Shown: positions 2,601 to 57,669 of the stretch, one piece after another
Layout of the letters: every line of letters begins with the position of its first letter
How positions within the stretch are numbered: position 1 is the first letter of the stretch
IMG/VR virus record: IMGVR_UViG_3300034091_000306
Origin: an uncultured virus (IMG/VR IMGVR_UViG_3300034091_000306)
Taxonomy: Duplodnaviria; Heunggongvirae; Uroviricota; Caudoviricetes
Reading direction: 5' to 3' (one strand)
Length of the DNA stretch: 64,000 nt
Position numbers and translations under genes: made by a program
Notes under the pieces: model-generated
What the model saw: only the letters and a program-made list of their open reading frames with translations
What the model was told of the DNA's origin: nothing
Databases searched by the model: none

Positions 2601-2626
2601 GACCGACGGGGCACCCACAGTGGGGG
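2601..2626 (+). repeat. dispersed 26-27 bp motif, copy 1
   Basis: GACCGACGGGGCACCCACAGTGGGGG. Confidence 0.95.
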
Positions 2627-2627
2627 T

Positions 2628-3281
2628 CTAGCGCTCGCCGGAGTAGATGAGCCGCACGCGCGAGCCGCCGTGAAGCGTCGGGCCCTGGTACTGACACGGC
2701 GGAGTCGGATTGTACTGCGTGCCTGCCTTGCATCCGGTCCCCCCAGGCACGAACCCGCAAGGGGGCTGCTGCCGGGCGACGCAGATGTCGCAGCCTAGGG
2801 GAAAGAGCCCGTAGACGTTCTCGTTGCCGTGCGCTCCCTTCGGCGGGCCGAGCGTGCGCGTTCCCTTGGCGTCATCGATCTCGAGAGCGAGCTCGTTTGA
2901 GTAGCCGTCAACCAAACTTACGTCGGTGATGTCGTACCAGTTCGGGTTGTTGATGTTGATCTCGGCCTTCGTCGACGCGCACGTGACGGGCGAGTTCACG
3001 GTGAGGGTCGCGTTGAAATACTTCCCGTTCAACGGCAATTCCTGCTTCGACTTCGCCGCGAGAGGGAACGAGCAGTTGAGGCGCGTCGTGGTCGGACAAA
3101 ACGCCCACGTTGGCCCTGCCGGCAGCACGACGGAGTCGGAGCCGAACGCGATGTAGACCACGCTCCCTGCGTCCGTGTCGTTGTAGACATCGACGGTGCT
3201 CGAGGTCACGCGCGTCACGAAGAACACGACGATGAGCACGAACGCGACACCCGCGAATCCACCTGCGATCTTCTTCATCAT
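2628..3281 (-). CDS. secreted/membrane-anchored thaumatin-like Cys-rich protein
   Basis: N-terminal hydrophobic helix after MMKK; TKAEI...YDITDVSLVDGYSN resembles the thaumatin T.AEF...YDVSLVDGFN signature; many Cys. Confidence 0.6.
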   Translation of the reverse strand: MMKKIAGGFAGVAFVLIVVFFVTRVTSSTVDVYNDTDAGSVVYIAFGSDSVVLPAGPTWAFCPTTTRLNCSFPLAAKSKQELPLNGKYFNATLTVNSPVTCASTKAEININNPNWYDITDVSLVDGYSNELALEIDDAKGTRTLGPPKGAHGNENVYGLFPLGCDICVARQQPPCGFVPGGTGCKAGTQYNPTPPCQYQGPTLHGGSRVRLIYSGER

Positions 3282-3382
3282 GCGGGTGATGATAGCGCAG
3301 GTATGAATACCTGCGCACCTAGAGCCGTCCGACGTCGCACCCTCACCAACCGCCGTCGCCCTGAGCACGGCCAGCATCGCCA

Positions 3383-3408
3383 CCACCACTGTGGGTGCCT
3401 CGTCGGTC
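3383..3408 (-). repeat. dispersed motif, copy 2
   Basis: reverse complement GACCGACGAGGCACCCACAGTGGTGG. Confidence 0.93.
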
Positions 3409-3960
3409 ACCCTGTCTCGTGCGCCAAGCGTGATTGTCTTCCATGCGGCCGAGGATGACAGCGCCGACGATCGCAAGGACTACCGCGAACACGAGGAGCA
3501 GGAAGACCTGGAACGTTACTTCGGAATCGTGACGGCATTCGACGCAGGGTAATTTCTGCCCGCGATGCACGTCGCATTCGTTTGGCCACATCGTTAGCGA
3601 AGGATGCTACAAGGGAAGGTCATGATCTGCACCTCAAGTTCCCTTGACACCTCGCTTCGTTCTGCGTTGACGTCCGCCATCGAGGATCGGGACTGGGACG
3701 CTGCGGTGGATCTCTCACGAACAATCGCGCGTCGTGCGGTCAGGTGTGCAGGAACGATCGAGCCTGATCTTCGGGAAATGCTCGAGGAAGCATCGCGGAT
3801 CATCATGCGCGGGGCGTTTTCCGCCTGACTCTTGCTATACGTTGTCGTGCAGAAATTCTTCGTGTAGCCTCTTCCAGTGTCGAACGAAGCGTTTTCCGCG
3901 TCGCCCACTTGAGACGAGAACGCTTCGTGCCTACCTTGCCGACCGTCAAGAGGAGACCGC

Positions 3961-4767
3961 ATGTCATCAGACGAGAACTACGAGATGAACGCGACCTCCT
4001 CTTGCGGCTGCAAGCACGTCGCCCAAACCGCGCAGGAGGACCTCCCGAAGCTCTCCCGCGGACTCCCGGCCATCGCCGAGGGGTTCTCCGCCGAACCGCT
4101 CCTCGCTCTCGAGGACGGCGTCTACGAGTGTGCTGACGGTAGCTGCGGCACAAATCTGACGCACTCCGTCATCCCCAGCGGCATTCGGTTCGACACGGTG
4201 AGGAAGAACCCGCAGGGCCTCTACGAAGCTTCCTCAAGCACCATCATCGACATCCCGGCACAGCTCCGCGAGGCGTGGGAGGTGACGGGGCCGGCGCACG
4301 GGCCGAATCGTTCGTGTCTTCCATGGGTTCGTATCAGTCGTGATCCGCAGTCGTTCAGCGGATGTCTCGCGGCTGCGCGTCAGCTCGGACCGATGAAGTA
4401 TCCAAAATCTTGTTTCAAGCTGATGCAGAAGTGGTTCTCGACGCAAGATCAGGAAGTCTTCGTCGTTGTGCTTCTCGATACGCAGCTTCAAGTTCGCGGT
4501 GTCGGTGAAATTTCCCGCGGCGCGCGTGATAGTGTGCAGACGCCCATCCCGGACATCCTTCGACTTCCGATCGTGGAGGGCGCGAAGGCGATGATCGTGA
4601 TGCACAATCATCCGAGCGGAAAGGTCAATCCCTCAAAAGCTGATAAGGCGTTGACCAAGACACTCAAGCAGGCGTGCGACACGGTGAACATCGATCTGTT
4701 CGACCATCTCGTCGTGGGGCCAAACGAATACTTCAGCTTTGCCAACGAAGGCTTGCTGAAACACTGA
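3961..4767 (+). CDS. radC: RadC-like JAB/MPN domain protein
   Basis: QEVFVVVLLD...MHNHPSGKVNPSKADKALT...DLFDHLVVG...YFSF: HNHPSG/S..D/DH JAB motifs. Confidence 0.9.
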   Translation: MSSDENYEMNATSSCGCKHVAQTAQEDLPKLSRGLPAIAEGFSAEPLLALEDGVYECADGSCGTNLTHSVIPSGIRFDTVRKNPQGLYEASSSTIIDIPAQLREAWEVTGPAHGPNRSCLPWVRISRDPQSFSGCLAAARQLGPMKYPKSCFKLMQKWFSTQDQEVFVVVLLDTQLQVRGVGEISRGARDSVQTPIPDILRLPIVEGAKAMIVMHNHPSGKVNPSKADKALTKTLKQACDTVNIDLFDHLVVGPNEYFSFANEGLLKH

Positions 4768-6945: not shown

Positions 6946-8970
6946 ATGGCGCGTCGAAGAGTGAGTGTGGCCGACAAGAAAGTGAATCAAGAGCCGGAGG
7001 CTGATCCCGCCGAGGTGGCGAGTGAGATGTTCGGCTCGGAAGTGCCGAAGAACAGCGACGGCACGATCAAGGCGGATGCAGAGCTCGAACCGGCGCAGGT
7101 GAAACGTATTGGCGCGCTCAGTGCCGAGAGCGTGCAGCGCAATCGCGTAGAAGCGGCCAAGGTTCGAAAAGCGCGCTCCGGCGACAGTGTCCGCTGGAGC
7201 GAAGACGACGCGCGAATCATGTTCGACTACGTCAAGAAGTCGTGGCCGACCGGCGTGAAGATTCTGATCAAGCGAATCGATCACGACGAGCAGGAGTTTC
7301 GTCCTGTCGAAGTGTCTTCTCTCCGGGATTCGACGGGATTCTATGACTATGTCACGCATAATATCCACAAGAGTCACACGGCTGCTCGGTACTCTTGCGT
7401 ATTTCGAGACAGCGTCGAGCGCGGCAAAGCCTATTTGAATATGCCTGACACAACTGCAGAAACACTGAGGAATGAAACCATGGCGGGAGGAAATGGAATG
7501 CCGGGTGGTGGGATGCCGTTTCCGCCGCAGTTCCCTGGGGGATATCAGTATGGCTACCCGCAGGGAGGTTATCCGCAGCAGGGGTATCCGCAGCAGGGCT
7601 ATCCTCCGCAGTATCCTCAGCAGCAAGGCTATCCGCAGCAGCCGTACCAGCAGCAGCCGCCGTACCAGCAGCAGCCGCCGTACCAGCAGCAGCCGCCTCC
7701 TCAGCAACAACTTCCTCCGGCACCGACTCCGCAGCCGGCACCTGCGCCTGTAGCTGCCGCTCCCGTCGAGCAGCCGTACACGCAGCAACCGCAGCAGCAG
7801 CAGCCGCAGCAGCCGTATCCGCCGCAGCAGCAACAGCCCCAGCAGCCGTATCCGCAGCAGCAACAGCCACAGTATGGTTATCCGCAGTATCCGCAGCCGC
7901 CGCAGCCCGCACCGCGCGACAACGCGCTCGAGGCGCAGGTATATACAATGTACCAAGAGAATCAGAAGCAGCAGGAGTTGATTCGAAATCAGCAGTTGCA
8001 GCTGGAACGAACGCTTGGGATGTTCGAAGCGTTCATGAATCAGCAGCGTGCTGCCGTGCCTGCTCCTCAACCTCCTCAGCCGGTTCAACCGCAGCAGCCC
8101 ATCCAGCAGCAGCAACCGCCGATGCAGCAGCCCTACGGCATGGGCGGGTTCGCGCATGTGCCGCCTGGAGCGCCTCCGGCCATGAACGGTGCGGGTCCCG
8201 GCTTCGGCGCTCCGCCAGCCTACGTCCCGCCGCAAGCGCAGTCTTACGTGCAGGTTCCTCCGGGCGCTTACCCGCAGCAAATTGCGCCACAGGGCGGCTA
8301 CCCGCAGCAGCAGGGCTACCCGCAGCAACAGCAGCAGCCGCCCCAGCAGACCTATCCACAGGGTTACCCGCAACCTGGGTACAATCCGCAGCAATCGCAG
8401 CAACAGCCGCCGCAGCAGCAGCAGCCCTCCAACCCCATGGTGGCTGTGCAGCAGCAGATGCAGCAAGCCGCGCAGATGATGCAGACGGTCAAACGTATCG
8501 GTGAGGACTTCTCACGCACCTTCGCGGGTGAGACGGAACCTGAGGAGGAGTCTCCGATTCCGGGGATGCCGCCCACACCGCCGGACGAGCCGCCGCCATT
8601 CCGCACGATCCCGCTTGGACCGACGCCAGATGCGATGCAGTACGCCTACAACCCGCATGATGGGAGCCCCAACTGGCTCGGCATCGGTCTCGCGAACATG
8701 CCGAAGATCGCAGGCTGGATCGACAAGGTCGCAACCACTGTCGTGAACATGAAGCAGCGGGAGGACGCCGAGCGCGCCGCCGCGATGGGTCAAACGATCA
8801 CCGTTCCAGCGGCCGAGCAGCCGCAGTACCAGCCGCAGGCGCGACTCCCGGCGCACGTAGCGCCTGCACCTGCCCCCGCGCCACAACCGCCGCCTCCTCA
8901 GGCGCCCCCGCGTCAAGGGATCGGCTTCCCTTCGATGGCCGCCTTCAGGCATGCGATTCCGAACGGTTAG
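6946..8970 (+). CDS. Gln/Pro/Tyr-rich low-complexity protein with globular N-terminus
   Basis: 674 aa; repeats GYPQQ, YQQQPP; short coiled-coil-like segment. Confidence 0.8.
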   Translation: MARRRVSVADKKVNQEPEADPAEVASEMFGSEVPKNSDGTIKADAELEPAQVKRIGALSAESVQRNRVEAAKVRKARSGDSVRWSEDDARIMFDYVKKSWPTGVKILIKRIDHDEQEFRPVEVSSLRDSTGFYDYVTHNIHKSHTAARYSCVFRDSVERGKAYLNMPDTTAETLRNETMAGGNGMPGGGMPFPPQFPGGYQYGYPQGGYPQQGYPQQGYPPQYPQQQGYPQQPYQQQPPYQQQPPYQQQPPPQQQLPPAPTPQPAPAPVAAAPVEQPYTQQPQQQQPQQPYPPQQQQPQQPYPQQQQPQYGYPQYPQPPQPAPRDNALEAQVYTMYQENQKQQELIRNQQLQLERTLGMFEAFMNQQRAAVPAPQPPQPVQPQQPIQQQQPPMQQPYGMGGFAHVPPGAPPAMNGAGPGFGAPPAYVPPQAQSYVQVPPGAYPQQIAPQGGYPQQQGYPQQQQQPPQQTYPQGYPQPGYNPQQSQQQPPQQQQPSNPMVAVQQQMQQAAQMMQTVKRIGEDFSRTFAGETEPEEESPIPGMPPTPPDEPPPFRTIPLGPTPDAMQYAYNPHDGSPNWLGIGLANMPKIAGWIDKVATTVVNMKQREDAERAAAMGQTITVPAAEQPQYQPQARLPAHVAPAPAPAPQPPPPQAPPRQGIGFPSMAAFRHAIPNG

Positions 8971-12298: not shown

Positions 12299-14392
12299 AT
12301 GAGCTCCGAATTTCAGCCCTCGGCCGCAAGTGCGCAAGGCATCGGCTCGACGATCATCCAGCAGACGTACCCCGACGGATCGAAGGGACTCGCCTTCTCC
12401 CTCGAACAGGTCGGCGCGCGCATGGTCAAAGGAAGATTGGACCCCCGCGTCCGATCGTGGGCGATTCGGACTTTGAAGGAAGCCGGCGATCCGCAGGGCA
12501 CCGTCAACAGGACACAAGCTTTGCTCGATGGTCTGCGGAAGGCGGCGATCTACGTCAACGATCCCGTGAATTCGGAATACATGCAGGCGGCACACGAGAC
12601 GCTGTGTTTGGACGACAAGGGATTTTGCTTCAAGGGAGGCGATTGCTTTCTCGACACCGAGATCGTCATACGTAAGACATCGATCGGAGGAACGGAGCGC
12701 GTCGCTATCAAGGACGTGAAGATCGGAGATCTCGTCTGGGGATGGAATACATGGACCGTCGTGGAAGCCGTTGCTGCGAAGGGAGAGCTATCTTTCAGTG
12801 GAATGCTCCTGGAAGGCCGCAGCAATCCGCTCTATCTGACAAAGGACCATCATGTCTTCATCAGGGATGGCGTGACGCATCGCCGTATCACGGTGAAGGA
12901 GCTACGAGTCGGCGACGAGCTTCTCACCTCCGACGAGATTCAGTCGCTCTCTCCATTCCCTGAAATCATCGAACTGCAGCATGATGTGAAGAAGGCGCAA
13001 GCCTTCGATATTCAAACGTCCGATCACTATGTCTATCTGTTAGACTACGACATCGTCGTCAGCCAATGCGACGACTTGAGCATAGCGCTAGGCTCCGCAA
13101 CCATGTCCGTAGGTATTCCTACCTACGTCGTCGCGCAGGCGTTCAACGGAGATTCTCTACCTTCTCACGTTCTCATCGGCGTCGAGGATCCGCAGTCAGG
13201 TCAGCGTTACCGCGTCGATCCCTCCACCAAGGAGAACGTCGGCTACTACAGCCACTTCACGAAGGAATGGTGGATCGATCCCATTTCGACAGCTCCGGTT
13301 TCATTGTCTGGAACTGGGAAGGTGGACGCAGACTTCGTTGGGGTCGGTCAACAAGCCTTTCAACAGGCGACCGCCGTTACCGCAGTCGCCTACAACGCGA
13401 CTGTTGCGCAGGTTCAGGCAGTCACCAAATCTCTCGCAGACGCACTCATCTCCGCAGAGTCAAAGCGCCAACTGATCGACCAAGTTTCTATCGCATTGCG
13501 GCCCGACGCACCATACGACGCGGAACCAACGACTCCGATCCAGAGCATTGCAGATTTTCCGATCGACGGGACATGGACCGCGAGCATGGCGCACGTCTCT
13601 GACGAAGTCATTGCAACGGGTCACGTCGTTCTTGCCGCTTTGAACGACGCGCTAAACGGTGCGCGTACCATCTATCTCGGCGCTAACGGTGTCGACGTCT
13701 ACATCGAAGCCAAATCGAGCGATAACACGTTCTATCAAATGGTTCTCGAGGGAGCGACCGACGGCATCCTAGGATTCATGAATCCTCTTGGAGTCATCCA
13801 AGGCGGAATAACGGTTCTCCTCGGCAAACTGCTTACGCCCGCACAAATAACTGCAGCGCAACAGGCACAAGTAGCCGGTCAACCGCCACCAGGCCTTAGC
13901 GGCGATGAAAAAAAGGGTCTGGGTCTCCCTCCCGCTGTCATCTTCGCCGGGCTGGTCACCATTGCGATTGTGACTGTCGCTGCCGCAATCGTAATCGTGA
14001 AGCTATGCACCACGCTGAACTATTATCTGGATTGGTGCACACAAAGACGACAGATCGAAGCAGCCATCGCGCTACTCAACTCCGGAAAGATCACGGTTGA
14101 TCAATACAACGCCATGACAAAGGCGGTCGCGGATCAACACGTCGCAGCGATCAACGCGCAGACCGAACAAGACAAGAACGATCCTTGGAAGGATCGCCTA
14201 GCGCAGATCGGCGACATCTTCATGTGGACCGCGATCGGCGGCGTCGCTATCGCCGGACTCATGGCGGCCGGTCCCTTCATCGCCGAAGCCGGCGCGGAAT
14301 TCCGTGCGAGGGGCGCAGCAAGACGCGCAGCCGCGCCTCCCGAACCCGCGCCCGAACACGAGCACCCTCATCTCGAACCCGAGCACGCCTAA
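12299..14392 (+). CDS. transglutaminase-like (Cys-His-Asp) protein containing a mini-intein, with C-terminal TM helices
   Basis: After intein removal GGD-CDDLSIAL...SHVLI...RVDPST gives the GDCDD / H / DP triad; two hydrophobic helices near the C-terminus. Confidence 0.8.
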   Translation: MSSEFQPSAASAQGIGSTIIQQTYPDGSKGLAFSLEQVGARMVKGRLDPRVRSWAIRTLKEAGDPQGTVNRTQALLDGLRKAAIYVNDPVNSEYMQAAHETLCLDDKGFCFKGGDCFLDTEIVIRKTSIGGTERVAIKDVKIGDLVWGWNTWTVVEAVAAKGELSFSGMLLEGRSNPLYLTKDHHVFIRDGVTHRRITVKELRVGDELLTSDEIQSLSPFPEIIELQHDVKKAQAFDIQTSDHYVYLLDYDIVVSQCDDLSIALGSATMSVGIPTYVVAQAFNGDSLPSHVLIGVEDPQSGQRYRVDPSTKENVGYYSHFTKEWWIDPISTAPVSLSGTGKVDADFVGVGQQAFQQATAVTAVAYNATVAQVQAVTKSLADALISAESKRQLIDQVSIALRPDAPYDAEPTTPIQSIADFPIDGTWTASMAHVSDEVIATGHVVLAALNDALNGARTIYLGANGVDVYIEAKSSDNTFYQMVLEGATDGILGFMNPLGVIQGGITVLLGKLLTPAQITAAQQAQVAGQPPPGLSGDEKKGLGLPPAVIFAGLVTIAIVTVAAAIVIVKLCTTLNYYLDWCTQRRQIEAAIALLNSGKITVDQYNAMTKAVADQHVAAINAQTEQDKNDPWKDRLAQIGDIFMWTAIGGVAIAGLMAAGPFIAEAGAEFRARGAARRAAAPPEPAPEHEHPHLEPEHA
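12644..13066 (+). mobile_element. mini-intein (Hint domain, 141 aa), C-terminal Gln
   Basis: starts CFLDTEIV; block B LTKDHHVF; block F AFDIQTSDHYVY; ends VVSQ before the +1 Cys. Confidence 0.85.
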
Positions 14393-14399
14393 GAACACA

Positions 14400-14426
14400 C
14401 CCCCAACTGTGGGTGCCCCGTCGGTC
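14400..14426 (-). repeat. dispersed motif, copy 3
   Basis: reverse complement GACCGACGGGGCACCCACAGTTGGGGG. Confidence 0.93.
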
Positions 14427-14459
14427 AGCGGGCACTACGCAGCGACCAAATCCAAAGCT

Positions 14460-14486
14460 GACCGACGGGGCGCCCACAGGGGTAGG
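14460..14486 (+). repeat. dispersed motif, copy 4
   Basis: GACCGACGGGGCGCCCACAGGGGTAGG. Confidence 0.9.
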
Positions 14487-14494
14487 TCGGCTAC

Positions 14495-14959
14495 ATGATC
14501 GTCGTCAAAGGCAGCAACGTGAAGTTCGAGTTGACGCGCCCTGCGGGCGCTCCCTCGGCGACGAAAAACCCGCACAAAATAGCGGGGAAAGTCATCTCTC
14601 TTCCCGCGGCCTACGGGATCATTCACGACCCGGAAGGCGAGCACTTCGACCGCTGCGAATGCTTCTTCGGACCCTACAAGTCAACGCAGCGCAAAGTCGA
14701 GATGACGTCCAAGGCGAAGGCCTACATGGGACCTTCCTATCCGGCAAGATTTGCCGTTGTTGACGTGCCTCGTGGACCGTGGAATTCTGTGGGTGAAGTG
14801 GCGCAGATCTTCTACAGGCGCCCTGGCCGCTACTCCGGAAAGTATTTCCATCCGTTCAAGGACGGGTACGCGCCGACACTCTCCAAGTGCGGACGCTTCT
14901 ATCGACTGAGTCTGCCGGGCGGCTGCATCGTCGACGATCGCGGTTTCGTCTTCCCGTAG
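14495..14959 (+). CDS. hypothetical protein
   Basis: 154 aa ORF in the structural operon; aromatic-rich, YFHPF. Confidence 0.65.
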   Translation: MIVVKGSNVKFELTRPAGAPSATKNPHKIAGKVISLPAAYGIIHDPEGEHFDRCECFFGPYKSTQRKVEMTSKAKAYMGPSYPARFAVVDVPRGPWNSVGEVAQIFYRRPGRYSGKYFHPFKDGYAPTLSKCGRFYRLSLPGGCIVDDRGFVFP

Positions 14960-15223
14960 TGCAGAGCGAAAACGTTCATGGCCGCTGAGAAATCGTATGT
15001 CGACATGATGAGAAAGTCGCGGCAAACGCAGCCGCGAGTGGCCGTTGGCGTTGTGCTTGATGCGCCCCGTCGCAAACGGACTCGGAAAATCTTGCCGGCC
15101 GTCAAGGCGACATCGAAACGAACAGGCACTAAATCTCGCTTGCAGAAAAGTCAAGACACCCATATCGTCTCTGTACCGGGGCGCACTTCCAAGCGCCAAC
15201 GCCACATCAAGAGGACTGCATCC

Positions 15224-24408: not shown

Positions 24409-25575
24409 ATGTCCAACGCCCCCACACCGCCTTCGGGCATCACTCTCATCTCCAACGTCCCGGCACCTCCGTCGACGAATTGGGTGCCGTGGTTTGTCGG
24501 CGGTGTCGCGCTCGCAGCGGCCGGAGCTCTCTCGTACGTCGCGCTTCAACGCAGAGCGCTACGAAATCCAATCGCTGATCTAGGAGATCCCGAAGTCATT
24601 CACATGAGTGACGGGCGCCTTCGTTACAAGTTCCTTCACGGCATCTACATCGAGAAGAGACTCATCGCGGGAACACGCCACATCGAATTCACCGCATGGC
24701 AGGTCGGTGAAGCCGGCGCGAAGTCTCGTTTGCTTGGAACGTCATCGTCTATGGACGGTGCCAAAGCCATCGCTCGTGAACGCGGGGAGAGCACACAGGA
24801 ATTCCTCGCTCGAATCGGAATGAGGAATCCGACCATCACCGTCTCCCTCACACCCGAAGAGCAGGCAGCCCTGCAGCGATCGATCGAGAAGAACCAGGCG
24901 GCTCTGCAGAGTCATATCGCGAAGGGACAAATGACCTTCGGCGGCAGCATGGTTCAGGCGAAGCCGAATCCGATCGGCAAATACAACATCTCTGAGTTCT
25001 TGTGGTCATCGTTCATCTCTCCTGCGCATAGACGTGCACTCGAGAATGACATTCGACTCCACGGGCACATGCGTGACAAGCGCACGTACGACAAGTGGAA
25101 GCGCGTGTTGACCAAAGACGCTCAACGACGATGGAAGGCTAACCCGATACGAAGCACCCACGAACGTCGGGAGATGGAGGATCTGCTACAGCGCTACGGC
25201 TACGATCCCGCCTACGCAGCAGATCTTCGACATGAAGGAATGGGCCCATACGAGCTCGAGAGCAGACTCAAGAACCGTCCAGGAAGCATCGGCAGCCTCG
25301 AGTACACGCACAACATCCATCGAATCCGCAGGAATCCTACTGACCGACGAGGCACCCACAGCGGGGGGTACGCGGCGTACAGGGCCGCACTCGCGGACCA
25401 GCTCATCAATCGCTACGGGTTCACCTACGGCCAGGCTTCGAACATCCTAGACATGACGTCGTCTGAGTTTCCCTCCGCATTCGCGGCCGGTCTATATGAT
25501 CACGGCGTCAAGGTGTCGACTGCAGCGCGACTTATCTACAAAACAGTGCGTATGACTACAAGACCGTTCACTTGA
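24409..25575 (+). CDS. TM-anchored polyprotein-like ORF with five NP-separated modules
   Basis: N-terminal TM then LRNPI, MRNPT, KPNPI, KANPI, RRNPT. Confidence 0.7.
   Translation: MSNAPTPPSGITLISNVPAPPSTNWVPWFVGGVALAAAGALSYVALQRRALRNPIADLGDPEVIHMSDGRLRYKFLHGIYIEKRLIAGTRHIEFTAWQVGEAGAKSRLLGTSSSMDGAKAIARERGESTQEFLARIGMRNPTITVSLTPEEQAALQRSIEKNQAALQSHIAKGQMTFGGSMVQAKPNPIGKYNISEFLWSSFISPAHRRALENDIRLHGHMRDKRTYDKWKRVLTKDAQRRWKANPIRSTHERREMEDLLQRYGYDPAYAADLRHEGMGPYELESRLKNRPGSIGSLEYTHNIHRIRRNPTDRRGTHSGGYAAYRAALADQLINRYGFTYGQASNILDMTSSEFPSAFAAGLYDHGVKVSTAARLIYKTVRMTTRPFT
25342..25368 (+). repeat. dispersed motif, copy 5 (in frame, DRRGTHSGG)
   Basis: GACCGACGAGGCACCCACAGCGGGGGG. Confidence 0.93.
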
Positions 25576-26200: not shown

Positions 26201-26542
26201 AGACCGTCGGCGTTCGCTATGAAGTGATCACGGCTGTCGCCGAGAGGGAGACCACCTCGGACTGGTTCCGAACGCAGCGCGCCGCAGAGCGCGTGGCCGT
26301 ACGCCGAGCCACAGACGGCTACCACTCTCTCATCCTTGAACACACCATACGAAATCTCGGAGGAGCCGGACCGCGACGAAGCGACGAGCGCGTGCCGCCA
26401 CCACCAGGATGGAACCGACGATGAACACCGCAGCACCCGGTAGCCGTCCTTTCTGGATGGCCGACGAAGACATCAAGGGCCCGTCCACGATGCGGCTCAT
26501 GCCGTCTGTCCCGCAGGCGCGGCGCGCGGCGTCACCATCCAC

Positions 26543-26568
26543 CCCCCACTGTGGGTGCCTCGTCGGTC
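26543..26568 (-). repeat. dispersed motif, copy 6
   Basis: reverse complement GACCGACGAGGCACCCACAGTGGGGG. Confidence 0.95.
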
Positions 26569-29495: not shown

Positions 29496-29522
29496 GACCG
29501 ACGAGGCACCCACAGATGGGGG
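29496..29522 (+). repeat. dispersed motif, copy 7
   Basis: GACCGACGAGGCACCCACAGATGGGGG. Confidence 0.95.
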
Positions 29523-34286: not shown

Positions 34287-34737
34287 ATGTAGACGTCGAC
34301 CATCCAAAAAAGGTAGCTCGGTCGGCGCATCGCGGAACTTAGGCGATTTCTTCCAGTTGTCAACCGCAATACCGAACCGCACCCGACCTCAATCGGGCGA
34401 GTGCAGGGAGGATTTTTTCGTTCACTCCGATTCAGGCGGATCCCTCGGAGGAGGCGTCATCGTGCCAGAGCTTTTTTTGCCGAGCAGCCAGCGGCTTGCG
34501 CTGTCAAGACGATTTCGAAGACGTCCGAGCGGTGCGGCGGCGTCGATCGATCCCTTGAGTGAAATCTCGAAGTCATCGATCGCAGCACGCATACGCGAGG
34601 TTGCATCCAACGCCATCGCAACCTCGTGCGGTTTCGTCGAGATCCGAGCCAGTACAAGTGCCGAGATCCAATCACAAAAAGTCAGCATGAAGAGATCGCG
34701 CGGTTCGAGCGAGGGCATCGCCAACGCAGCGTAGCAC

Positions 34738-34764
34738 CCCCCATCTGTGGGCGCCCCGTCGGTC
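34738..34764 (-). repeat. dispersed motif, copy 8
   Basis: reverse complement GACCGACGGGGCGCCCACAGATGGGGG. Confidence 0.93.
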
Positions 34765-39905: not shown

Positions 39906-40226
39906 ATGGGTACCCTTCTACGATTTCAGCCGGCTGACCGACGAGGTGCCCACAGTGGGGGGTCGTTGTGGTTCGTGGAGGCGGGCTGGCACGGCATCGA
40001 CTGGCCGATGCGGGACGCGCTCACGAAGCGCGTTCGGGGTAGTGTGGGATCCGGGATGGACATGACGTCCAAGCGCTACGACATCACATGGACGGCAAAG
40101 ACAGAGAAACGTGCGCGGGCCATCGCGTCGAAGATCGGTGAAGCGGTCTACGGCGAAAATGATCTGCGCGTACGCCATGGCGTTCCTGTGACGCACGTTC
40201 GTTTGAACGTCTATCGAGGAGATTGA
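39906..40226 (+). CDS. hypothetical protein with LLRFQP leader
   Basis: MGTLLRFQPA immediately followed by the motif-encoded DRRGAHSGG. Confidence 0.6.
   Translation: MGTLLRFQPADRRGAHSGGSLWFVEAGWHGIDWPMRDALTKRVRGSVGSGMDMTSKRYDITWTAKTEKRARAIASKIGEAVYGENDLRVRHGVPVTHVRLNVYRGD
39936..39962 (+). repeat. dispersed motif, copy 9 (in frame)
   Basis: GACCGACGAGGTGCCCACAGTGGGGGG. Confidence 0.93.
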
Positions 40227-40228
40227 TC

Positions 40229-43365: not shown

Positions 43366-43833
43366 CTGCTCTCCGTCTTGTCATTACTGTCGTTCTTCAC
43401 TGGATGCCGCCGCCCACAGCGGCAACGCCACTCGATGATCTCACCGGCATCATCGGTGATCGGTGTCTCGGGCTTGTGATCGCACCCGAAGATGTCTTCG
43501 CACATCAAATCTCTACGTCTAGTCATCCGCTCCACCACCCTATCCCGCAAGTTGTCCGTCTCAGCTTCGAACGATTCGATCGTAATCGTCTCGTTCGGAT
43601 GCTCCCGACACCACGAACGATGCGTATAACCAATGCGATCGGCTATCGCGCACGATCCGCACACGCCGCAGAGACCCCCGTGCTCAGGACATTCCCATCC
43701 AACCAAGAACCGTTGCACGCCTACACCGATATCCACCTCCTCGTAACACGGCTCCGCGTCTTTGCCGCACGAACACGTCACCGGAGGATCGGCCGCCGCG
43801 CGAACCCCATCTGTGGGTGCCCCGTCGGTCATC
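43362..43833 (-). CDS. Cys-rich Zn-binding protein upstream of the RAMP gene
   Basis: CSC, CPEH, CGVCGSC, CREH, CRC; ATGA overlap with the RAMP start; begins with motif-encoded MTDGAPTDG; start uncertain. Confidence 0.55.
43805..43830 (-). repeat. dispersed motif, copy 10
   Basis: reverse complement GACCGACGGGGCACCCACAGATGGGG. Confidence 0.93.
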
Positions 43834-44011
43834 GAATCATCACCAATGCTCATGTCCTGCGAAGCCTTCAACAAGATGTGTTTTCGTGTTTGTACGTATG
43901 CAAACTACCTCACGCATACCGGCATCTATTTTATCGATCAGACGAATGCCGTTCATGACAAGCGCTCCAGCACGATTGGGATCAAATTTAGACAATAATC
44001 GAATTGGACGG

Positions 44012-45903: not shown

Positions 45904-46086
45904 ATGAGCAAGTCCAAGACGCGCGACGTCTCAACTCTCGTCCAGACACACGTTCCAAAGCCGTTCGCCGTTGCTCTCCGCGAGAAGGCTTCGAAGGAAG
46001 GCATTTCCGTCGCTGCGTGGGTGCGTCGGTTGATCATGGTGAACATGCCGCAGGTTGACCGACGAGGCACCCACAGTGGGGGGTGA
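45904..46086 (+). CDS. ribbon-helix-helix (CopG/Arc-like) regulator
   Basis: LVQTHVPKPFAVALREKASKEGISVAAWVRRLI. Confidence 0.65.
   Translation: MSKSKTRDVSTLVQTHVPKPFAVALREKASKEGISVAAWVRRLIMVNMPQVDRRGTHSGG
46057..46083 (+). repeat. dispersed motif, copy 11 (in frame, last nine codons)
   Basis: GACCGACGAGGCACCCACAGTGGGGGG then TGA. Confidence 0.95.
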
Positions 46087-51093: not shown

Positions 51094-51494
51094 GAAGGTA
51101 CCGTACCGATTACCGTTGCGTACGTCAAGTACTGTCTGCTAAGGTACAAAAACGCCTGAAAACGCGCGAGGCGCGAGGGAGATGACATGATCACCGGCTA
51201 TGCCGACCACTACGAAGACCCCGAGAAGAAGCCTGAAAACCCGCGGGAAGCGCTGAGCGAGCGTGAACGCGCGCTCTGCGGGCGTGTGATTGATCTCGCG
51301 GCGCTCCTCCTCGTCACTGACGTCAAATCACTCGAGAAGATCGCGGCGTTCCTCCTCCGTGAGGGAGGAAACTCGAAGGTCTTCGCAGTCGCCGAGGAGA
51401 CCGTGCGCGAGGCGATGGACGTGCGTCTGGAGTGAGATCAGCTGTGGGGGCTCGAAGCCTCACGACCGATAGCCTACACTTATCGGATCCAACC

Positions 51495-52496
51495 ATGAAC
51501 GACCCGATCGACTCGAAGAACAACCTCATGACGGGAGTGAGCACATCTCTCGTCGTCGAGAACCTCGAAACCCTCGTTGCGGGAGTCAAAGAGCTCGTCG
51601 ACGCCGCCGACGCAGGCGCGACAACGCGCGCGTACGCCGCCGACTGGCGAGTTTTCGAGGCGTGGTGCACTTCGAAGCGACTTCCCGTGACGTTGCCCAT
51701 CGATCCCGACATCGTCGCGACGTACCTGCGCGCCCTCTACAACCGAGGCCGGAAGGTGAAGACGATCGAACGGGCACTTGCCGGCATCGTGCATCGTCAC
51801 CGCGCCGCAGACGCGGAGTGGTTGACCCCCGATCGCATCCGTAGGGAAATTCGAGGCATTCGGAAGACGCGCCGAAAGGCAGGTGAGCGTCCCACCAAGA
51901 AGACCGCGCTCACGAAAGACAAGCTTGTCACGTTTCTCGCGCAATTCGGCTCGAAACTCATCGATTTACGTGATCGAGCACTCCTCCTGCTGACGTGGGA
52001 CACCGCCTCACGCGAGTCCGAGACCGTAGGCCTCGAGATCACCGACATCACCTTCGTTCCTCAGCAGGGCCTGGTGATCGAGCCGCGCTCAACGAAAACC
52101 GATCAGGAGGGGAAAGACAGCGCACAAGCCGTCGAATTTGCAGCCGATCCTGCGCTGTGCCCGATCGTTGCCCTTCGCGCATGGCTCGAGGCCGCAAACA
52201 TCACCGAAGGGCCTATTTTTCGTCCGATCACCAAGCAGGGGAAGGTGCAGGCGACGCAGCTGTCGACGCGCGCGTTCCGTGTGATCGTCAAAAAACGCGC
52301 CGCTGCCGCGGGATTTGATGCCGCGACGTTCAGCGGCCACTCCCTTCGCTCGGGGTGGATCACCGAAGCGCGACGCGCTGGACGTGACATGACGGCGATC
52401 ATGAGCCGCTCGAAGCACAAGAGCGAGGCGATGGTCCGCGAGTACATCCACTACGAGGATCTCTTCAAGAAGAACGCCTCGAAGGGGCTCCTCTGA
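51495..52496 (+). CDS. tyrosine recombinase/integrase (Cre-like)
   Basis: TTRAYAADW N-terminal domain; RDRALLLL...SRESE, STKTDQEG, FSGHSLRSGW, HKS..MVREY: R-K-H-R-H-Y catalytic set. Confidence 0.93.
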   Translation: MNDPIDSKNNLMTGVSTSLVVENLETLVAGVKELVDAADAGATTRAYAADWRVFEAWCTSKRLPVTLPIDPDIVATYLRALYNRGRKVKTIERALAGIVHRHRAADAEWLTPDRIRREIRGIRKTRRKAGERPTKKTALTKDKLVTFLAQFGSKLIDLRDRALLLLTWDTASRESETVGLEITDITFVPQQGLVIEPRSTKTDQEGKDSAQAVEFAADPALCPIVALRAWLEAANITEGPIFRPITKQGKVQATQLSTRAFRVIVKKRAAAAGFDAATFSGHSLRSGWITEARRAGRDMTAIMSRSKHKSEAMVREYIHYEDLFKKNASKGLL

Positions 52497-53715
52497 TGAA
52501 CGAGATCCCGCCCGGCTTCGAAGACGTGCTGTCTAGCTACGGACCCGTCCTCATCGACATGGACTGCGGGGAACCGATCGCGTGGGGCTTCAAGATCCAC
52601 AAGTATCTCGGTCCAGAACGCTTCGAATCTCTGCGGAAATTCGGGCATTTGCAGTGCATCGTGATGGGTGAATGGGCGCTTGTTACGAAGTGGCTGACGC
52701 CCGATGAGGCACGCGCGAAGTACGGCGAGGTGACGAGGATCGAGACGGGCCCGCAGGGTGGATTTCGATCGGTCACCTACGGGATGCGAACGTTCATGAA
52801 CAGGCGGATGCGCCCGTCTCGCGGACATCGCTCGCCGCGAAGAACCTGAAGGCGAAGAAGTTCTGGGCGGCGGTCTGTGCGACGTGCCGGATGCTCCAGA
52901 GCGTCGAAGATCATCAGCGTGCGATTCGTGCGCTCTACAAGAAGATCGAACAGCGAAGGATGCGAGGTCTTTGAAGCCCATGACGCAGAAAAACGCTGAA
53001 AAAACCAAGGCGCGCGCGCTTCAAGAGCGCACGGGGTGGACCTATCAAGAGTGCCTCCTCCGCGTTCGTACGCTGACGCCGGAGGCGCTCGACATCCTGA
53101 TCAAGGTGCGTGCGGGGAGCGCATGACGACGAAGCTTCTCCACGACAACTGCATCGGTTGCCTTGCGCAAACGGAACACGATGCAACAGACGCGGTGCTC
53201 GTGCTTGTCTCCGTACTCTACAGCGGAGACCTCGAGATCAGCGATATTTACGGGGATTTGTGCTTCCTTCACCGCCGTATCGTTGACGGCGCAGCGAAGG
53301 AGATTCTTGAGGAGAGGAAGAGACGATGAGCCGACCGATCAAGGAACGCACTACGAGCTGTGCTGTCTGCACGAAGATGATCACGTTCGAATCCGTGACG
53401 TCGCCGCATCCTGAGGCGCCGGAGCTGTTTCGCATGATGCATGGATCGATCGCGTGGATCGGGCTCACGAGCGGTGCGAACAGCGATCACGCGAGCGTGA
53501 TCATGTGCTGCGACGGCGACTGCGTACAGAAGCTACTCGCAGAACAATACGATCCGAAGGCGACGATCGATCGCTTGATCGAGGAAAGAGGACTCGACGG
53601 CGCAGCATGGAAAATCCTAGAAAACGCACGTGAGTGCCTGCGACAGATTCCAATCGACAGCCCGATGTGGCTCGACATGGTGGAGATCTTCAAACGACGT
53701 GAAGAAATGCAAGTT

Positions 53716-53742
53716 GACCGACGAGGCACCCACAGTGGGGGG
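53716..53742 (+). repeat. dispersed motif, copy 12 (in frame in ORF 53326..53841)
   Basis: GACCGACGAGGCACCCACAGTGGGGGG. Confidence 0.95.
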
Positions 53743-55024
53743 CTGCGGCGTTGTCGGGGGTGGGGGATTTACGCGATGGCTCAGTGCTCAGAGCTTGGAG
53801 TGCATGATTTCGTCGCGGTTAGTGCGAAGGAGGAACCGTGATCGCGCGCGATTTCGGCCTCGCTTTGATCGTCGTCGCGCACAGCAAGGGCCTCGTCCTT
53901 TGCTACGACGGGCCCGATTTCCTCAGGGAGGTCATCCGGGATGACTACGTCGTCGGAGGCGAATTCACGCTCGAAAACGTCGATCACGCGCCGCTCGCAG
54001 ATGGCGTCTACGTCGGTGAGCTGCTCCTCGTCGACGATGGTCCTGGTGACTGGTCGGGCTCGCGCGAGGTCGCTTTGCAGATGCGCAACGCGCGCCCTGC
54101 GACGCTCGAAGAGTGGACCGCGCATCTGAACGGCGAGTGGGCGTGGGAGCCGTTCGTCCGTGAACCGCGGCCGAATCGAGAGCTTCCGCGATCGACACCG
54201 CGTCAGCGCTGCACAGGCTGCGGCGAGTACGCCGACGAACTGCGTCCTGATCGCTGCGCGGGTCACAATGACGCTGGACACAACGACATCGACGTCGATG
54301 AGAACGGGATGGCGATCCCACGCACGTCGACCACACCTGAAAAAGATGCCGTCGATTTTTTCGAGCGTCGGGCGCCCCTCGGAGACGACGAATGAGCCTC
54401 GAATCGATCGAAGCGAGGATCGCGAAGATCGCGCCGCTTTTGGAAACTGGCGCCATCGAAGAGGCGCTACATCTTGCGTTGATCGTCGCGACGATCGATG
54501 CGCCTGAGCTGATTGCGTGGATCAAGCGCGACCCTCCTCCGGACGTTCGGATCGACTTCTACGCCTTGCCGTACGAGACGCTCACGCGCCTCGCACACGA
54601 GAGCGGGCGCGTCTTCGAGGAAGCTTCGGCGCATGAGAGGCATGTCGGAGCACCGCTCGAATACTCGTGCTTGCCGGCGTGTGAATTTTGCCGTCGCCGT
54701 CGCGAAGAGGATTCATGAGCATCGAAGCGATCGAACAGCGACTCGCGGAGCTACAGCGCTTGTACGAGGACGAGCCTGTCGCAACCCTCTCTGACGGCGT
54801 CGCCTCCCTCGCGCTTACGATGGCGCTCGAGGACGTGCCGGTGTTGATCACGCTGCTACGTATGATCCGCCAGCGCGACGGCCTCGAACCGGGCGTCTCG
54901 ATCTGTCCGTCGAACGAAATGGATGTTCACGCGAAGGGTCTCGGCCCCCAGCACTGCGTGTCGTGTCTTCAGGCGCGTGTGAAAGCGCTCGAAGCAGAAG
55001 TTGCAACCTACAAGGAGACTGATC

Positions 55025-55621
55025 ATGTCTGAAGATGAATCGAAGCCGCTTCGTCTGAACGAGCCTGCGCCAGACTTTCTCGCTGCTGCTACGACGGGCT
55101 TTGTACAACTCGTCGACTTCGCCGGGCGCTGGCTCGTGCTGTTCTCGTACGTGAACGACTTCACGCCCGTCTGTACGAGCGAGGTCGTTGCCTTCGCGGA
55201 AAGGGCGAAGGACTTCGAGAAGCGCGGCGTGAAACTCGTAGGCCTCAGCGCGGATGGAATCCACGCGCACATCGCGTGGCTCAATAGCGACACGATGCCG
55301 GCAAAGATCCCGTTCCCGATCATCGCGGATTTGGAGGGTGAGATCGCGCGCGCTTACGGCATGGTTCATCCCGCAAGCCCGGCGAGCGGCGTTCGCTCAA
55401 GGGGCCCCGTGCGAGTGAATCGTTGCACGTTCGTGATCGATCCCGCGCAGAACGTCCGCGCGATGATCCACTACCCGATGACGGTCGGGCGCAGCGTCGA
55501 GGAGATCCTTCGCGTCGTCGACGCACTCATGTACGGCGACGAGACGGGGCTAAACACTCTCGCGAATTGGAAGGCCGGTGAGAAGGGCGTCGCTCCTCCG
55601 CCGACGACGATCGAGCGATGA
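55025..55621 (+). CDS. peroxiredoxin (AhpC/Prx family)
   Basis: APDF...WLVLFSY..DFTPVCTSE...GLSAD..H.AW...PFPIIAD...YPMTVGRSVEEILRVVDAL. Confidence 0.92.
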   Translation: MSEDESKPLRLNEPAPDFLAAATTGFVQLVDFAGRWLVLFSYVNDFTPVCTSEVVAFAERAKDFEKRGVKLVGLSADGIHAHIAWLNSDTMPAKIPFPIIADLEGEIARAYGMVHPASPASGVRSRGPVRVNRCTFVIDPAQNVRAMIHYPMTVGRSVEEILRVVDALMYGDETGLNTLANWKAGEKGVAPPPTTIER

Positions 55622-56779
55622 CGCTCTGTTCGATCTGCGGGCTTCACGAGATAGACGCGCACGAGTGGGTGCGCACGAACTGGCGATCGATCACAGGGCG
55701 CCTGGCGATTCCCCTTTCGACGGAGCAACGAGAGTGGCTTGCAGCAGCGCGAGGGGAGCGTCCCGCGATGCGGATCGGCGACTGTCTTGGCGTGGCAAGC
55801 CCGCCACTCGCCCCGTACCTTCGCGGCGCGGGGGTCGGAGCGGAGCCGCCGCGGGTCCTCTGGGATGAAGCAACGAGCCAACGCCTTCGCGATGCTGGCC
55901 TAGGCGACTTCGAGGTACATCCCCGCTGGCGCGAGGCAATGGCGACGATCGTTCGCGAGGGACCCGCCGCCGTGAGCGCCGCACGCATTGCGTTCGGTCC
56001 TGACCCCGAGGAGAGAGGCGCGAAGGGCTCGCCCGCCGCTCCAGGCAAGCCGCAACGCACTCCTGGCGAACGGCGCCCCGAGGGTGAACCGTACCCCGAG
56101 GGAGCCTGGACGGCCGCCGAGTTAGCGCCGTACCTTCGTGGCGCTGGCGTACAATCTCCTACCGACGACTTTCTGGCGCGGCACACGCCGAGCTGCCGAT
56201 GCCAGATCTGCTCAGGGGCTTACCGCGAAATGGGGCCGTCCGGCGCGCAGGCGCCTCCAGGAACGACGACCGCCTCCGAGGACGGCCCTCGGGGCGTCCC
56301 CGCGTCTGAGGGCCGCGTAGCGGCAATCGAGGTCCCGGCGAGCCCGACGTGCTCCGGAGGCCGACTGACCGCCCTGCACGGCCCCCTCGCGGGGCGGCCC
56401 TACGTTCCTGCGATGCGACCACTCTACTGCCCGATTTGTGGGCGACATCGAACGGTTAGCGTCGATCTCCGCCGGTTCCTACACACGGGGAGCGTGAAGC
56501 ATCGGCCGTGCGCTGCCTGCATGCGCACACACGGCGGACCACGCCACCACGCGGGACGGACGCCGTGAGCGCGCTCCCCCCGCCGATCGTTCCTCACCCT
56601 CACGTCGAGCTGGACAGCAACGGGAGCCCCCTCGCTTTCGCGTTCGATAACGCGGACTTGATCGACGCCGATCTCGCACGAGAGCGTGCGATCCTAGGCG
56701 TTCCTGCGACGGATCGCGTGGGGGGCGAGGGAACGATCCCGCTGTTCCAAGCCCGCGGCAGCGTAGATCCTCACCGCCG

Positions 56780-57586
56780 ATGACTTGGAAGCCGCGATCC
56801 AAACGATTTCAGCGCGTTCAGGCCCTGCAAGCGACGGTCGAATGTGCCGTCGACGCGCGGGTCGCCGCCGACGAAGCGCTCGGCGTCACGACGTCACGGC
56901 GGACGCGCCAGCGGGTCGCGGCGCTCTGCCGATGCCGGCGATGTCACCCCCCTACGACCGACGAATGCCCTGCGGTCACCGAAATCCAGAGTGAGGATGC
57001 TATCCGCGCGTCACTACAACGAAAGCGAAAGATTCTCTCCGACTGCTTCTATTGTGGAGCGGACGTCACCGCGTCCGGAGCGCGCATTCTGGACGCGATG
57101 ACACCCGCGCGCCTCGGCGGCGCGAACGATCCGCGGAACCGCGTCCCCGCCTGCCGACGCTGCGCCGCAATCAAGCAGGCGAAGACCTCGGAAGAGTACC
57201 GCGTCATTCTCGCGAAAACACGCGGGACCCCTACCGTTTTCCACGGCGAAAGCGGAGCTAGGCCGCGATGTCCCCGCTACCCGCACGACGGTGAATTCGC
57301 ATTCCGCGCGGCAGGCCGACGGGGGACGCACGCCGACTTTCCGTGCGTCCGCGGTCCGGAGCTCGTGAGGATCCTGGGGTGGACGGACGCCACGACGGAC
57401 GCCCGTGGATCGAGGATCGAAACGGCCTTCACCCCGGAATTTCTCGCGCGGATGATCGTAAAGCAGGCGCTAGTACCGCCGTTCCCGTGCGCGACGGCGC
57501 CCGAGATCACCGAGGTCGCGCCGCTCCCCTCGCCGCTCCGGCGCCGCGGGCGCAACGTGCTCCCTAGGCGATTCGTCCGTCACTAG
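56780..57586 (+). CDS. HNH-like endonuclease domain protein, active site degenerate
   Basis: CFYCG...LDAMTPARLGGANDPRNRVPACRRCAAIK; DH is replaced by DA and CN by CA. Confidence 0.6.
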   Translation: MTWKPRSKRFQRVQALQATVECAVDARVAADEALGVTTSRRTRQRVAALCRCRRCHPPTTDECPAVTEIQSEDAIRASLQRKRKILSDCFYCGADVTASGARILDAMTPARLGGANDPRNRVPACRRCAAIKQAKTSEEYRVILAKTRGTPTVFHGESGARPRCPRYPHDGEFAFRAAGRRGTHADFPCVRGPELVRILGWTDATTDARGSRIETAFTPEFLARMIVKQALVPPFPCATAPEITEVAPLPSPLRRRGRNVLPRRFVRH

Positions 57587-57643
57587 TGACTTTTCCGCGC
57601 GCAAAGCGCCGTAAACACGTGGCAAACGACCGCACGCAATAGA

Positions 57644-57669
57644 CCCCCACCGTGGGTGCCTCGTCGGTC
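57644..57669 (-). repeat. dispersed motif, copy 13
   Basis: reverse complement GACCGACGAGGCACCCACGGTGGGGG. Confidence 0.93.

Follow-up and report, generated by a model that had tools for sequence, protein, structure and literature searches.

The few regulatory networks of phages that have been worked out in depth, such as those of L5, P1 and T7, are built around dispersed asymmetric sites. In phage P1, the C1 repressor binds asymmetric operators of 17 bp, which overlap with recognizable promoters and are scattered over a large genome of phage or plasmid-like character, some of them as inverted pairs. The promoters of the single-subunit polymerases of T7, T3 and SP6, which are present in a dozen or so copies, each contain about 20 or more contiguous and nearly invariant asymmetric bases followed by G's, they all point with the genes and they require the gene of the polymerase. 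Here we have investigated a dispersed word in the DNA of an uncultured virus (IMG/VR record IMGVR_UViG_3300034091_000306), a member of an almost unannotated family of soil and peat viruses of 110–160 kb. The analysed stretch, referred to as the window, comprises 64,000 nucleotides (nt), less than half of a contig of ~140 kb (140,646 bases), and all counts given for the window cover these 64 kb. Within it, a one-directional (asymmetric) motif of 26–28 bases is dispersed 13 times. The motif resembles the P1 operators in its asymmetry, its scatter and the inverted pairing of some copies; it differs from them in length, in sequence and with respect to the promoters that the latter overlap, and from the T7-type promoters by the antisense placement of 4/13 copies (2601+, 14426-, 26568- and 57669-, designated here and below by the position and strand of the first motif base) and by the lack of a recognized polymerase gene among the window ORFs (open reading frames) scanned.

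A second group of precedents comes from mycobacteriophages. According to the excerpted text of PMC9283540, phages of cluster A (exemplified by L5 gp71 and the TipsytheTRex repressor) contain asymmetric stoperators of 13 bp in more than 20 copies, which lie in promoters and in short gaps between genes throughout the genome, keep one orientation relative to transcription and are bound by an immunity repressor combining a helix-turn-helix with a second domain. Measured against that excerpt, the motif of the window shares the dispersal of an asymmetric site in many copies at such locations (13 in 64 kb of the ~140-kb contig, 8 of them non-coding), the restriction to a lineage and a presumed absence from the host. 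Its orientation agrees with the local genes in 9/13 copies of the window, the other 4 being reversed and 3 of these abutting stops. It differs in its length, in the presence of a 1-nt indel and a G-run of variable extension and in the lack of a recognized homologue of the repressor. The start-associated sequences of cluster K mycobacteriophages, as far as they are covered in an excerpt of PMC3203893, are likewise asymmetric phage-specific repeats upstream of starts, with a length of 13 bp and a Shine-Dalgarno-like GAGG, which are absent from the host, located 3–7 bp from the start codon and almost all in one orientation. The motif contains a GAGG of this kind as well, but its copies are separated from starts by anything between 19 and 247 nt, and several are found next to stops. 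Finally, the PeSL cassettes of T4-type phages illustrate, on the partial accounts in PMC2839356 and PMC4122927, that repeated border motifs can drive the shuffling of modules. Within the scope of these accounts, the motif resembles PeSLs as a short repeat at the borders of variable genes, which brackets open reading frames (ORFs) and lies at junctions of replacement or indel between relatives; a PeSL combines a sigma-70 promoter with a stem-loop, is embedded in AT-rich DNA and always points with the genes, whereas the motif is GC-rich, is used in both orientations and, in the single copy, contains no host-type promoter and no hairpin.

In view of the evidence described below, we consider the motif to be a lineage-specific, orientation-dependent site for a DNA-binding protein, which would control transcription at the borders of units in the manner of an operator or stoperator. 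The assignment is tentative, and the most plausible of those that we have weighed.

A discrete word kept within a narrow lineage

A scan of the window for GACCGACGRGGYRCCCAC, in which up to 2 mismatches were allowed, retrieved 13 matches, all of them exact, with 7 located on the plus and 6 on the minus strand. In shuffled versions of the window (n = 100), such matches numbered 0.08 on average and never exceeded 1. The number, strands and places of the copies listed in the first-pass annotation of the sequence, which gave the low coordinate for those on the minus strand, were all recovered. When extended to the 20-base core GACCGACGRGGYRCCCACAG, the match is perfect at 12 sites and contains 1 mismatch at the remaining one (57669-, with the variant CACGG); sites with 2–4 mismatches are missing from the window and those with 5 mismatches (5 sites) correspond to background, which defines the motif as a discrete family that is sharply set apart from the remaining sequence. 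In register, the copies follow the consensus t-GACCGACG-R-GG-Y-R-CCCACAG-(W)-TGGGGG(G)-t. Its left 8 bases, GACCGACG, are unchanged in 13/13 copies, in agreement with their earlier description as invariant, and the variation in the core consists exclusively of transitions (A/G at position 8, C/T at 11, A/G at 12 and A/G at 18). In the right part, the exact sequence CCCACAGTGGG is present in 5/13 copies, one extra base (T or A) is inserted ahead of TGGGG in four (14426-, 29496+, 34764- and 43830-) and the run of G's ranges from 4 to 7. The dyad CCCAC-A-GTGGG and the occasional 1-nt insertion that had been ascribed to this part are both recognizable, and four copies deviate there (3408-, 14460+, 25342+ and 57669-). 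A T directly precedes the motif in 11/13 copies of the window (15/18 once copies from related contigs are added), its outer ends read TG...CA and its inner dyads are limited to CCCAC-A-GTGGG and the degenerate palindrome GGYRCC in the middle.

Past ~28 bp, nothing is shared between the copies, whose flanks are unrelated, and inspection by eye revealed no target duplications, neither at individual copies nor in 5/5 inverted pairs. Both observations agree with what had been noted at first reading, as does the absence of copies from the regions 14487-25341 and past 57669 of the window. Three contigs from another assembly (L045, L047 and L055), which are 99.96–100% identical to the window, cross 4 of the copies, and contigs from public runs cross the copies 25342, 29496, 34764 and 43830 without differences. 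Since independent contigs extend across the copies unchanged, the repeat is not an artefact of the assembly, an explanation that had initially been considered.

Several simple interpretations of the word were rejected. For a coding motif, the word itself leaves two of its three sense frames open, and ORFs in one of these are about as long as in the other. For a cassette consisting of a stop, a Shine-Dalgarno sequence and a start, TGA at -1 terminates a long ORF in only 2–3 copies and GTG or ATG at +19/+20 opens an ORF of at least 50 codons in only 3/13, and for an extended repeat unit the similarity between copies ends too early, at ~28 bp. A second word, CGACGATCGA, occurs 7 times in the window, is short and lies within genes.

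In database searches, the motif gave 0 matches in IMG/VR and none in GenBank phages. Among the genomes of GTDB, represented by one per species, we found 8 single matches, against ~9 expected by chance according to our own arithmetic, and none of them continues into the TGGGG tail. No GTDB species genome holds a full copy, which speaks against a common host repeat of the repetitive extragenic palindromic (REP) or BOX type, as had been suggested as a trivial explanation. We have equally rejected an arrangement of REPs or bacterial interspersed mosaic elements with a RAYT protein, given that the single copy is not a palindrome and that full copies are lacking in the GTDB species representatives; a Y1 transposase was not found among the window ORFs scanned. 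A clustered regularly interspaced short palindromic repeat (CRISPR), or a solitary unit thereof, was dismissed since scans of genomes and metagenomes contained no locus with more than 2 copies within 600 bases. Among the more distant viral relatives, no site with fewer than 3 mismatches is present in 36 loci (674 kb around a homologous gene), whose repeated words are collagen-like or other coding repeats with no analogue of the motif. Three complete relatives lack the motif and contain no other long dispersed word in its place; the best 10-mers in these genomes reach z ~10–12 versus 35 in the window.

The full motif is found in 5 more contigs of metagenomes from the Joint Genome Institute (L013, L017, L078, L083 and L087), which are small, originate from the same peat samples, show no nucleotide similarity to the window and together contain 5 distinct copies. 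Of these, L013 and L017 encode proteins related to those of the window, and the copy in L013 occupies the syntenic place of copy 29496, where 28/29 motif bases are identical and the flanks cannot be aligned. The motif is kept within a narrow lineage and is not general to the wider virus family, a restriction that is typical of fast-changing immunity and regulator systems and not of core machinery. In the overlap of L087 and L078, a repeat protein, whose repeat we take to resemble that of KGG stress proteins, reads through the motif copy within its last 20 codons.

Gene borders, strand and transcription

Within the window, the motif is tied to the borders and the direction of genes. The genes were called with a self-trained model of codon usage and in some cases curated by hand, part of this curation being carried out after the motif was known. 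On the basis of these calls, 8/13 copies lie in non-coding DNA, which accounts for 13% of the window (random mean 1.6), a co-oriented start is found within 60 nt downstream of the first motif base in 6/13 (random mean 0.45) and the stop of a gene running in from the G-run side is located within 60 nt of the end of the G-run in 3/13 (random mean 0.64, P 0.025). Either of these border features is shown by 9/13 copies (random mean 1.1), and the direction of the local genes is matched by 9/13 copies of the window and by 5/5 distinct copies of the related contigs. Starts are located at +19 to +57 in 10 of the 18 copies, and in 3 copies (3408-, L078- and that of L083) an ORF of 184–253 codons opens at a GTG or ATG inside the motif. 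Copies inside ORFs fall into the last 10–78 codons; as the word is devoid of stops in two sense frames, these ORFs merely continue across it. The homology of the protein encoded by 24409-25575 with its relative P0018 ends 6 codons before copy 25342, and the homologues of a ribbon-helix-helix protein end before its motif-encoded tail at copy 46057, which places also these two in-ORF copies at old gene ends.

Among the copies that point with the local genes, 3408- (3383..3408) lies within the last third of a minus-strand ORF (3343-3591), and its GTG at +19 or an ATG at +31 opens the minus-strand gene that ends at 2628. Copy 14460+ (14460..14486) is positioned with its first base 35 nt ahead of the ATG at 14495 that opens the structural (tail-like) gene block, and 25342+ (25342..25368) is located inside the ORF 24409-25575, 78 codons ahead of its stop. 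Two intergenic copies follow: 29496+ (29496..29522), 57 nt ahead of the ATG at 29553, and 34764- (34737..34764), 40–46 nt ahead of a minus-strand ORF (34724-34422) and 25 nt from the start of a divergent plus-strand gene at 34789. Copy 39936+ (39936..39962) starts 48 nt past the stop of 39538-39888, with in-frame starts of the next plus-strand gene at +30 and +39, and 43830- (43805..43830) heads the minus-strand unit 43781-42248, with a GTG at +49. Copy 46057+ (46057..46083) encodes the final 10 codons of the gene of the ribbon-helix-helix protein (45904..46086, plus strand, 60 aa), and 53716+ (53716..53742) resides inside the ORF 53326-53841, 41 codons ahead of its stop and 122 nt ahead of the start at 53838.

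Three of the four reversed copies follow or abut stops. Copy 2601+ (2601..2626), located 10 nt past the stop of the plus-strand ORF 2373-2591, abuts with its G-run end the stop (2628-2630) of the convergent minus-strand gene 2628-3389; 14426- (14400..14426) begins 7 nt past the stop (14392) of a long plus-strand gene and 57669- (57644..57669), the copy with the CACGG variant, 56 nt past the stop of the plus-strand gene 56780-57586 in a non-coding stretch of 650 nt (57590-58243), both pointing back into the gene that they follow. The fourth, 26568- (26542..26568), is antisense inside a small plus-strand ORF (26409-26636), whose stop overlaps the start of a phosphatase gene. In several instances, copies act as brackets: the single gene 3389-2628 is exactly enclosed by the inverted copies 3408- and 2601+, as is a different single gene (82-708) in L078, and the plus-strand genes 53838-57586 are contained between 53716+ and 57669-, with the G-run ends facing inwards as seen from the bracketed units. 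Conversely, 14426- and 14460+, the left and right arms of the inverted doublet 14400-14486, are placed back to back at a distance of 33 nt, and the plus-strand transcript of the doublet is predicted to fold into a 22-bp stem (-60 kcal/mol, z -5.8). Between 14250 and 14500, the coding potential shifts from the frame of a 755-aa gene to another plus-strand frame (ORF 14304-14498), ~110 nt ahead of the stop of the former, where an overlap, a frameshift or an indel may be located.

The tie to borders and strand, the conservation across diverged flanks, the restriction to a lineage and the lack of a host promoter together fit a cis signal of transcription units that would be read by a dedicated factor. 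Its core is under strong constraint, as judged from the 0–1 mismatch in 13/13 copies, the absence of degenerate ones and the 28/29 bases kept in L013. We propose that a single sequence-specific DNA-binding protein of the element would dock on the motif and act on transcription in dependence of its orientation. At copies that point with the genes just upstream of starts, the bound protein would control the entry into the downstream genes, and at reversed copies abutting stops it would halt read-through arriving from the G-run side. The transcript across the inverted copies at a distance of 33 nt would gain a long hairpin between two gene blocks, and the presence of the same 28 bp at many borders would also turn the motif into an exchange point, or recombination linker, between modules. 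The binding of a protein, its effect on transcription and the identity of the binder are what we infer from the described arrangement, and from its position we equally infer the ribbon-helix-helix protein, the only recognizable small DNA-binding protein found to adjoin a copy, to be a candidate reader of the motif. Of the options raised in the first-pass annotation, the protein-binding regulatory site is still the one that best accounts for the tie of the copies to borders and gene direction, with a binder that is putative. We rank such a polar site first, since systems of this kind are lineage-specific and the wider family shows no sign of a polymerase or sigma factor of its own, and since reversed copies right after stops fit barriers to read-through and not promoters. 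The motif marks both heads and tails of units and coincides with module junctions. If it is read by one protein, site and protein would together constitute a compact, orthogonal and orientation-dependent switch or insulator of transcription.

Several points weigh against a polar protein-binding site. The binder is putative, and searches with Pfam, PHROGs and NCBIfam recognized no homologue of the stoperator-binding repressor in the visible 64 kb of the ~140-kb contig. With 26–28 contiguous and almost invariant bp, the motif exceeds the asymmetric operators with which we have compared it (13 bp in L5 and 17 bp in P1) in both length and conservation, and such a length would be better suited to the promoter of a single-subunit polymerase or to base pairing between nucleic acids. 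At copy 26568-, which is antisense inside a plus-strand ORF, a roadblock effective from the G-run side would keep transcription from reaching the downstream genes. The border statistics depend on our own gene calls, partly curated with the motif in sight, and the agreement in orientation of 9/13 window copies is not significant by itself. Finally, there is no host-type promoter beside the copies that an operator could control: a pair of -35 and -10 elements was not found in or beside the motif, with a weak match (8 of 12) within 120 nt in only 4/13 copies. A canonical TTGACA-N17-TAACTT at 58154-58182 heads an early-like operon, suggesting that the host polymerase uses ordinary promoters.

The lack of host-type promoters at the copies would also fit the motif being a phage-specific promoter itself, a possibility that we rank second and take seriously even if it is rather unlikely. 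In this case, a dedicated polymerase, a sigma-like factor or an activator would bind the 20 conserved bases, with the transcription start at the G-run or immediately ahead of it, to yield leaderless or short-leader mRNAs, or antisense RNA in case of the antisense copies. The length, the asymmetry and the all-or-none conservation are reminiscent of T7-type promoters, the G-run follows the conserved block with starts at a short and variable distance, long ORFs open inside three copies and the copy that heads the structural block is the sole one in that block. Against a promoter, 4/13 copies are antisense inside a gene or directed at the 3' end of a convergent one, two single genes would be transcribed from both ends and the 1-nt indel falls just before the supposed start. 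We found no T7-type polymerase or sigma domain among the window ORFs scanned (98 in one scan and 59 in another) and no sigma region 2 in 5 complete relatives, and a search for PF00940 matched 0/5 of these relatives, with the control genomes silent as well. The lack of a conserved long promoter-like word in the three complete relatives suggests that the family does not use such a system. A sigma-54 promoter, for which the consensus is GG-N10-GC, was rejected by eye on account of GG-N10-GG and a variable spacing. On the minus strand at 34262-34363, a well-formed intrinsic terminator (GGGGCTTTTCGGCCCC plus T9) lies ~50 nt past TTGACA-N17-TAAGTT, and a small RNA of ~65 nt could be encoded there, between two minus-strand units.

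The predicted fold of the doublet, located between two gene blocks, is the main support for an element acting at the RNA level, to which we assign a low probability. A sense copy would constitute a site in the 5' leader for an RNA-binding protein or a nuclease, either nut-like or used for processing, and a transcript that contains the motif in both senses would form long duplexes between its copies, which would be cut or stabilize the mRNA. The copies are mostly on the sense strand and in leaders, units bracketed by inverted copies would carry complementary ends, and the transitions that make up the entire variation of the core would in part be tolerated as wobble pairs. On the opposing side, the single copy lacks a convincing fold, with a stem of 3–6 bp (pairs assigned by eye), energies of -9 to -16 kcal/mol and no compensatory changes, and the motif matches neither an Rfam family nor a tRNA.

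Module junctions, cassettes and exchange

The polar regulatory site that we favour has to be considered in the context of the junctions between modules, with which the motif coincides. The homology with relatives breaks beside 3 copies (26568-, 29496+ and 25342+). Contigs from two other peat runs match the window over the segment 25896-26533, a similarity that ends 6 nt short of copy 26568-, and L013 shares the left neighbour of copy 29496 and not its right neighbour. The block that is syntenic with the relative G002 (3961 to ~23850) is flanked by copies 3408- and 25342+, which both point outward, the gene of the cassette 2601-3408 is found at an unrelated place in G002, and where the doublet is located in the window, G002 contains tightly packed, overlapping genes without a gap. 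In its placement at such junctions, the motif again resembles PeSLs.

This arrangement is consistent with a role of the copies as cassette ends or recombination linkers, which we rank third and regard as unlikely to be their primary function. In such a scenario, inverted copies with TG...CA ends would bracket accessory modules, a recombinase or homologous exchange between copies would move or swap these modules, and an effect on transcription would be secondary. The orientation order yields 5 adjacent inward-facing pairs, including the exactly bounded single-gene cassettes 2601-3408 of the window and 82-708 of L078, the conserved core block is delimited by outward-facing copies, a T precedes most copies, and the PeSL cassettes, on the partial accounts available, offer a precedent (PMC2839356; PMC4122927). 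Arguments to the contrary are found in the lack of target duplications, of a transposase domain in the window and of a dyad of the recombinase type. The alternation of orientations is not significant, with 10 runs versus 7.5 expected (sd 1.7, own arithmetic), and the segment shared with the two other runs ends inside a cassette without the motif, implying that motif and cargo are not one unit. The rearrangements between copies for which the first-pass annotation had proposed to map reads were looked for in 4 peat DNA runs, mapped as contigs onto 25001-45000, and no real joint between copies was seen at a depth of only ~1–6. The single joint that falls on copies (25368 to 26543) extends on its shorter side over no more than 26 letters, which is the length of the motif, and is indistinguishable from a fold-back or alignment artefact; the remaining two are not located at copies.

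Two further kinds of site are not supported in this respect. Core sites of tyrosine recombinases consist of two inverted arms of 11–13 bp around a spacer of 6–8 bp, and the motif does not contain two such arms as would be required for a site of the lox, dif or att type. The link to a Cre-like recombinase that had been drawn at first reading is further weakened by the presence of homologues of the tyrosine recombinase of the window (51444-52496) in G001 and G002, which both lack the motif. Ends of transposons or of miniature inverted-repeat transposable elements would account for inverted pairs, but 5/5 pairs lack duplications and the window lacks a transposase domain; with an extended repeat unit missing as well, the earlier suggestion of a tiny mobile element does not hold in its classical sense.

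The motif may have a role in the exchange of modules, given the inverted copies that bracket cassettes and the breaks of homology beside three copies, and exchange is likely a side effect under any reading. As a bolder and distinctly unlikely extension, the motif with its TG...CA ends and inward-facing pairs could be the end of a cassette system of large soil phages that has not been described, in which single genes or small modules, such as those at 2601-3408 and in L078 (82-708), would be captured, moved and swapped by a dedicated recombinase or a nucleic-acid-guided enzyme, with the site also insulating the cassettes transcriptionally. If it turned out to be a cassette end, the motif would reveal the way in which accessory genes are traded between large phages of soil, and in either case it provides a 28-bp bait to find the regulator of an uncultured phage.

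The many dispersed copies of a long specific site and the iteron-like non-coding region beside copy 57669- would be compatible with a structural DNA site used for partition, condensation, packaging or the arrest of replication forks, which we consider highly improbable. A tie to gene starts, stops and strand is not needed by such sites yet is present, and for this reason the partition, condensation and packaging functions that had been listed initially lose ground. Moreover, the motif shows no strand bias along the window (7 plus and 6 minus copies in alternation), and multiple packaging sites would cut the genome.

The virus and its gene content

The element is a large and very poorly known virus of a prokaryote from peat, which is probably tailed. 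A 431-aa protein encoded at 17026-18318 has a relative of 75% identity on a contig of 159,591 bases, and its alignment finds 36 IMG/VR loci (L097–L132) with 33–38% identity, located on contigs that range from 4 to 128 kb and in most cases exceed 50 kb. The records of 5/5 relatives that were looked up in IMG/VR are rated complete, with lengths of 109–128 kb, and 2 have terminal repeats. The protein defines a family of uncultivated viruses. Its predicted model (pLDDT, predicted local distance difference test, of 59.8) suggests a beta-sandwich or jelly-roll with only weak matches: Foldseek did not return a match at E 0.001 or better, and the best VIA Z of 6.2 was obtained for beta-sandwich and jelly-roll proteins, including some capsid proteins. 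With fold matches of this strength, the label 'capsid-like' that had been given to the block at 14.5–25.3 kb is unproven. Sequence searches of the PDB with four large proteins of the window yielded nothing useful, and an Atlas search returned only clusters of viral hypothetical proteins, below 0.9. In many relatives, a conserved hairpin-like word (…GGCCCAGGAAACGGCG…) is located just upstream of the gene of the 431-aa protein.

Most ORFs of the window do not match a family in Pfam, PHROGs or NCBIfam. Recognizable products, apart from the tyrosine recombinase and the ribbon-helix-helix protein, are RadC (3961-4767), a dual-specificity phosphatase (26636-27088), the start codon of which shares bases with the stop of the small ORF ahead of it (TAATG), a peroxiredoxin of the AhpC/TSA type (55001-55618), a lectin-like protein (30706-31521) with a below-cut-off match to the putidacin L1 bacteriocin family, DUF3846, DUF6919, an HNH protein and DUF2786. 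The RAMP protein named in the first-pass annotation was not found in the window. A LysM protein with a weak match to a baseplate hub (PHROG LysM/baseplate hub, 7.7e-5) is encoded beside a protein with a weak match to a tape measure (E 0.056), and these PHROG matches would point to a tail module.

Other features of the window and its relatives concern non-coding and repetitive regions. The 650-nt stretch between 57590 and 58243 is GC-rich and iteron-like, with five CGGATCT words (57787-57870) and the canonical promoter at 58154-58182, and may be an origin or a control region. In the gene of a 674-aa protein (6946-8970), runs of CAGCAGCAGC and GCAGCAGCCGCC at 7570-8420 encode a low-complexity stretch rich in Q and A. 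In L017, a motif copy is found ~350 nt upstream of a gene homologous to that of the lectin-like protein at 30706-31521. Long genes with collagen-like Gly-X-Y repeats are located downstream of the structural block in L100, L103, L104 and L132 (~13–21 kb per locus), and in L013 a gene with such collagen-like repeats directly follows the motif copy.

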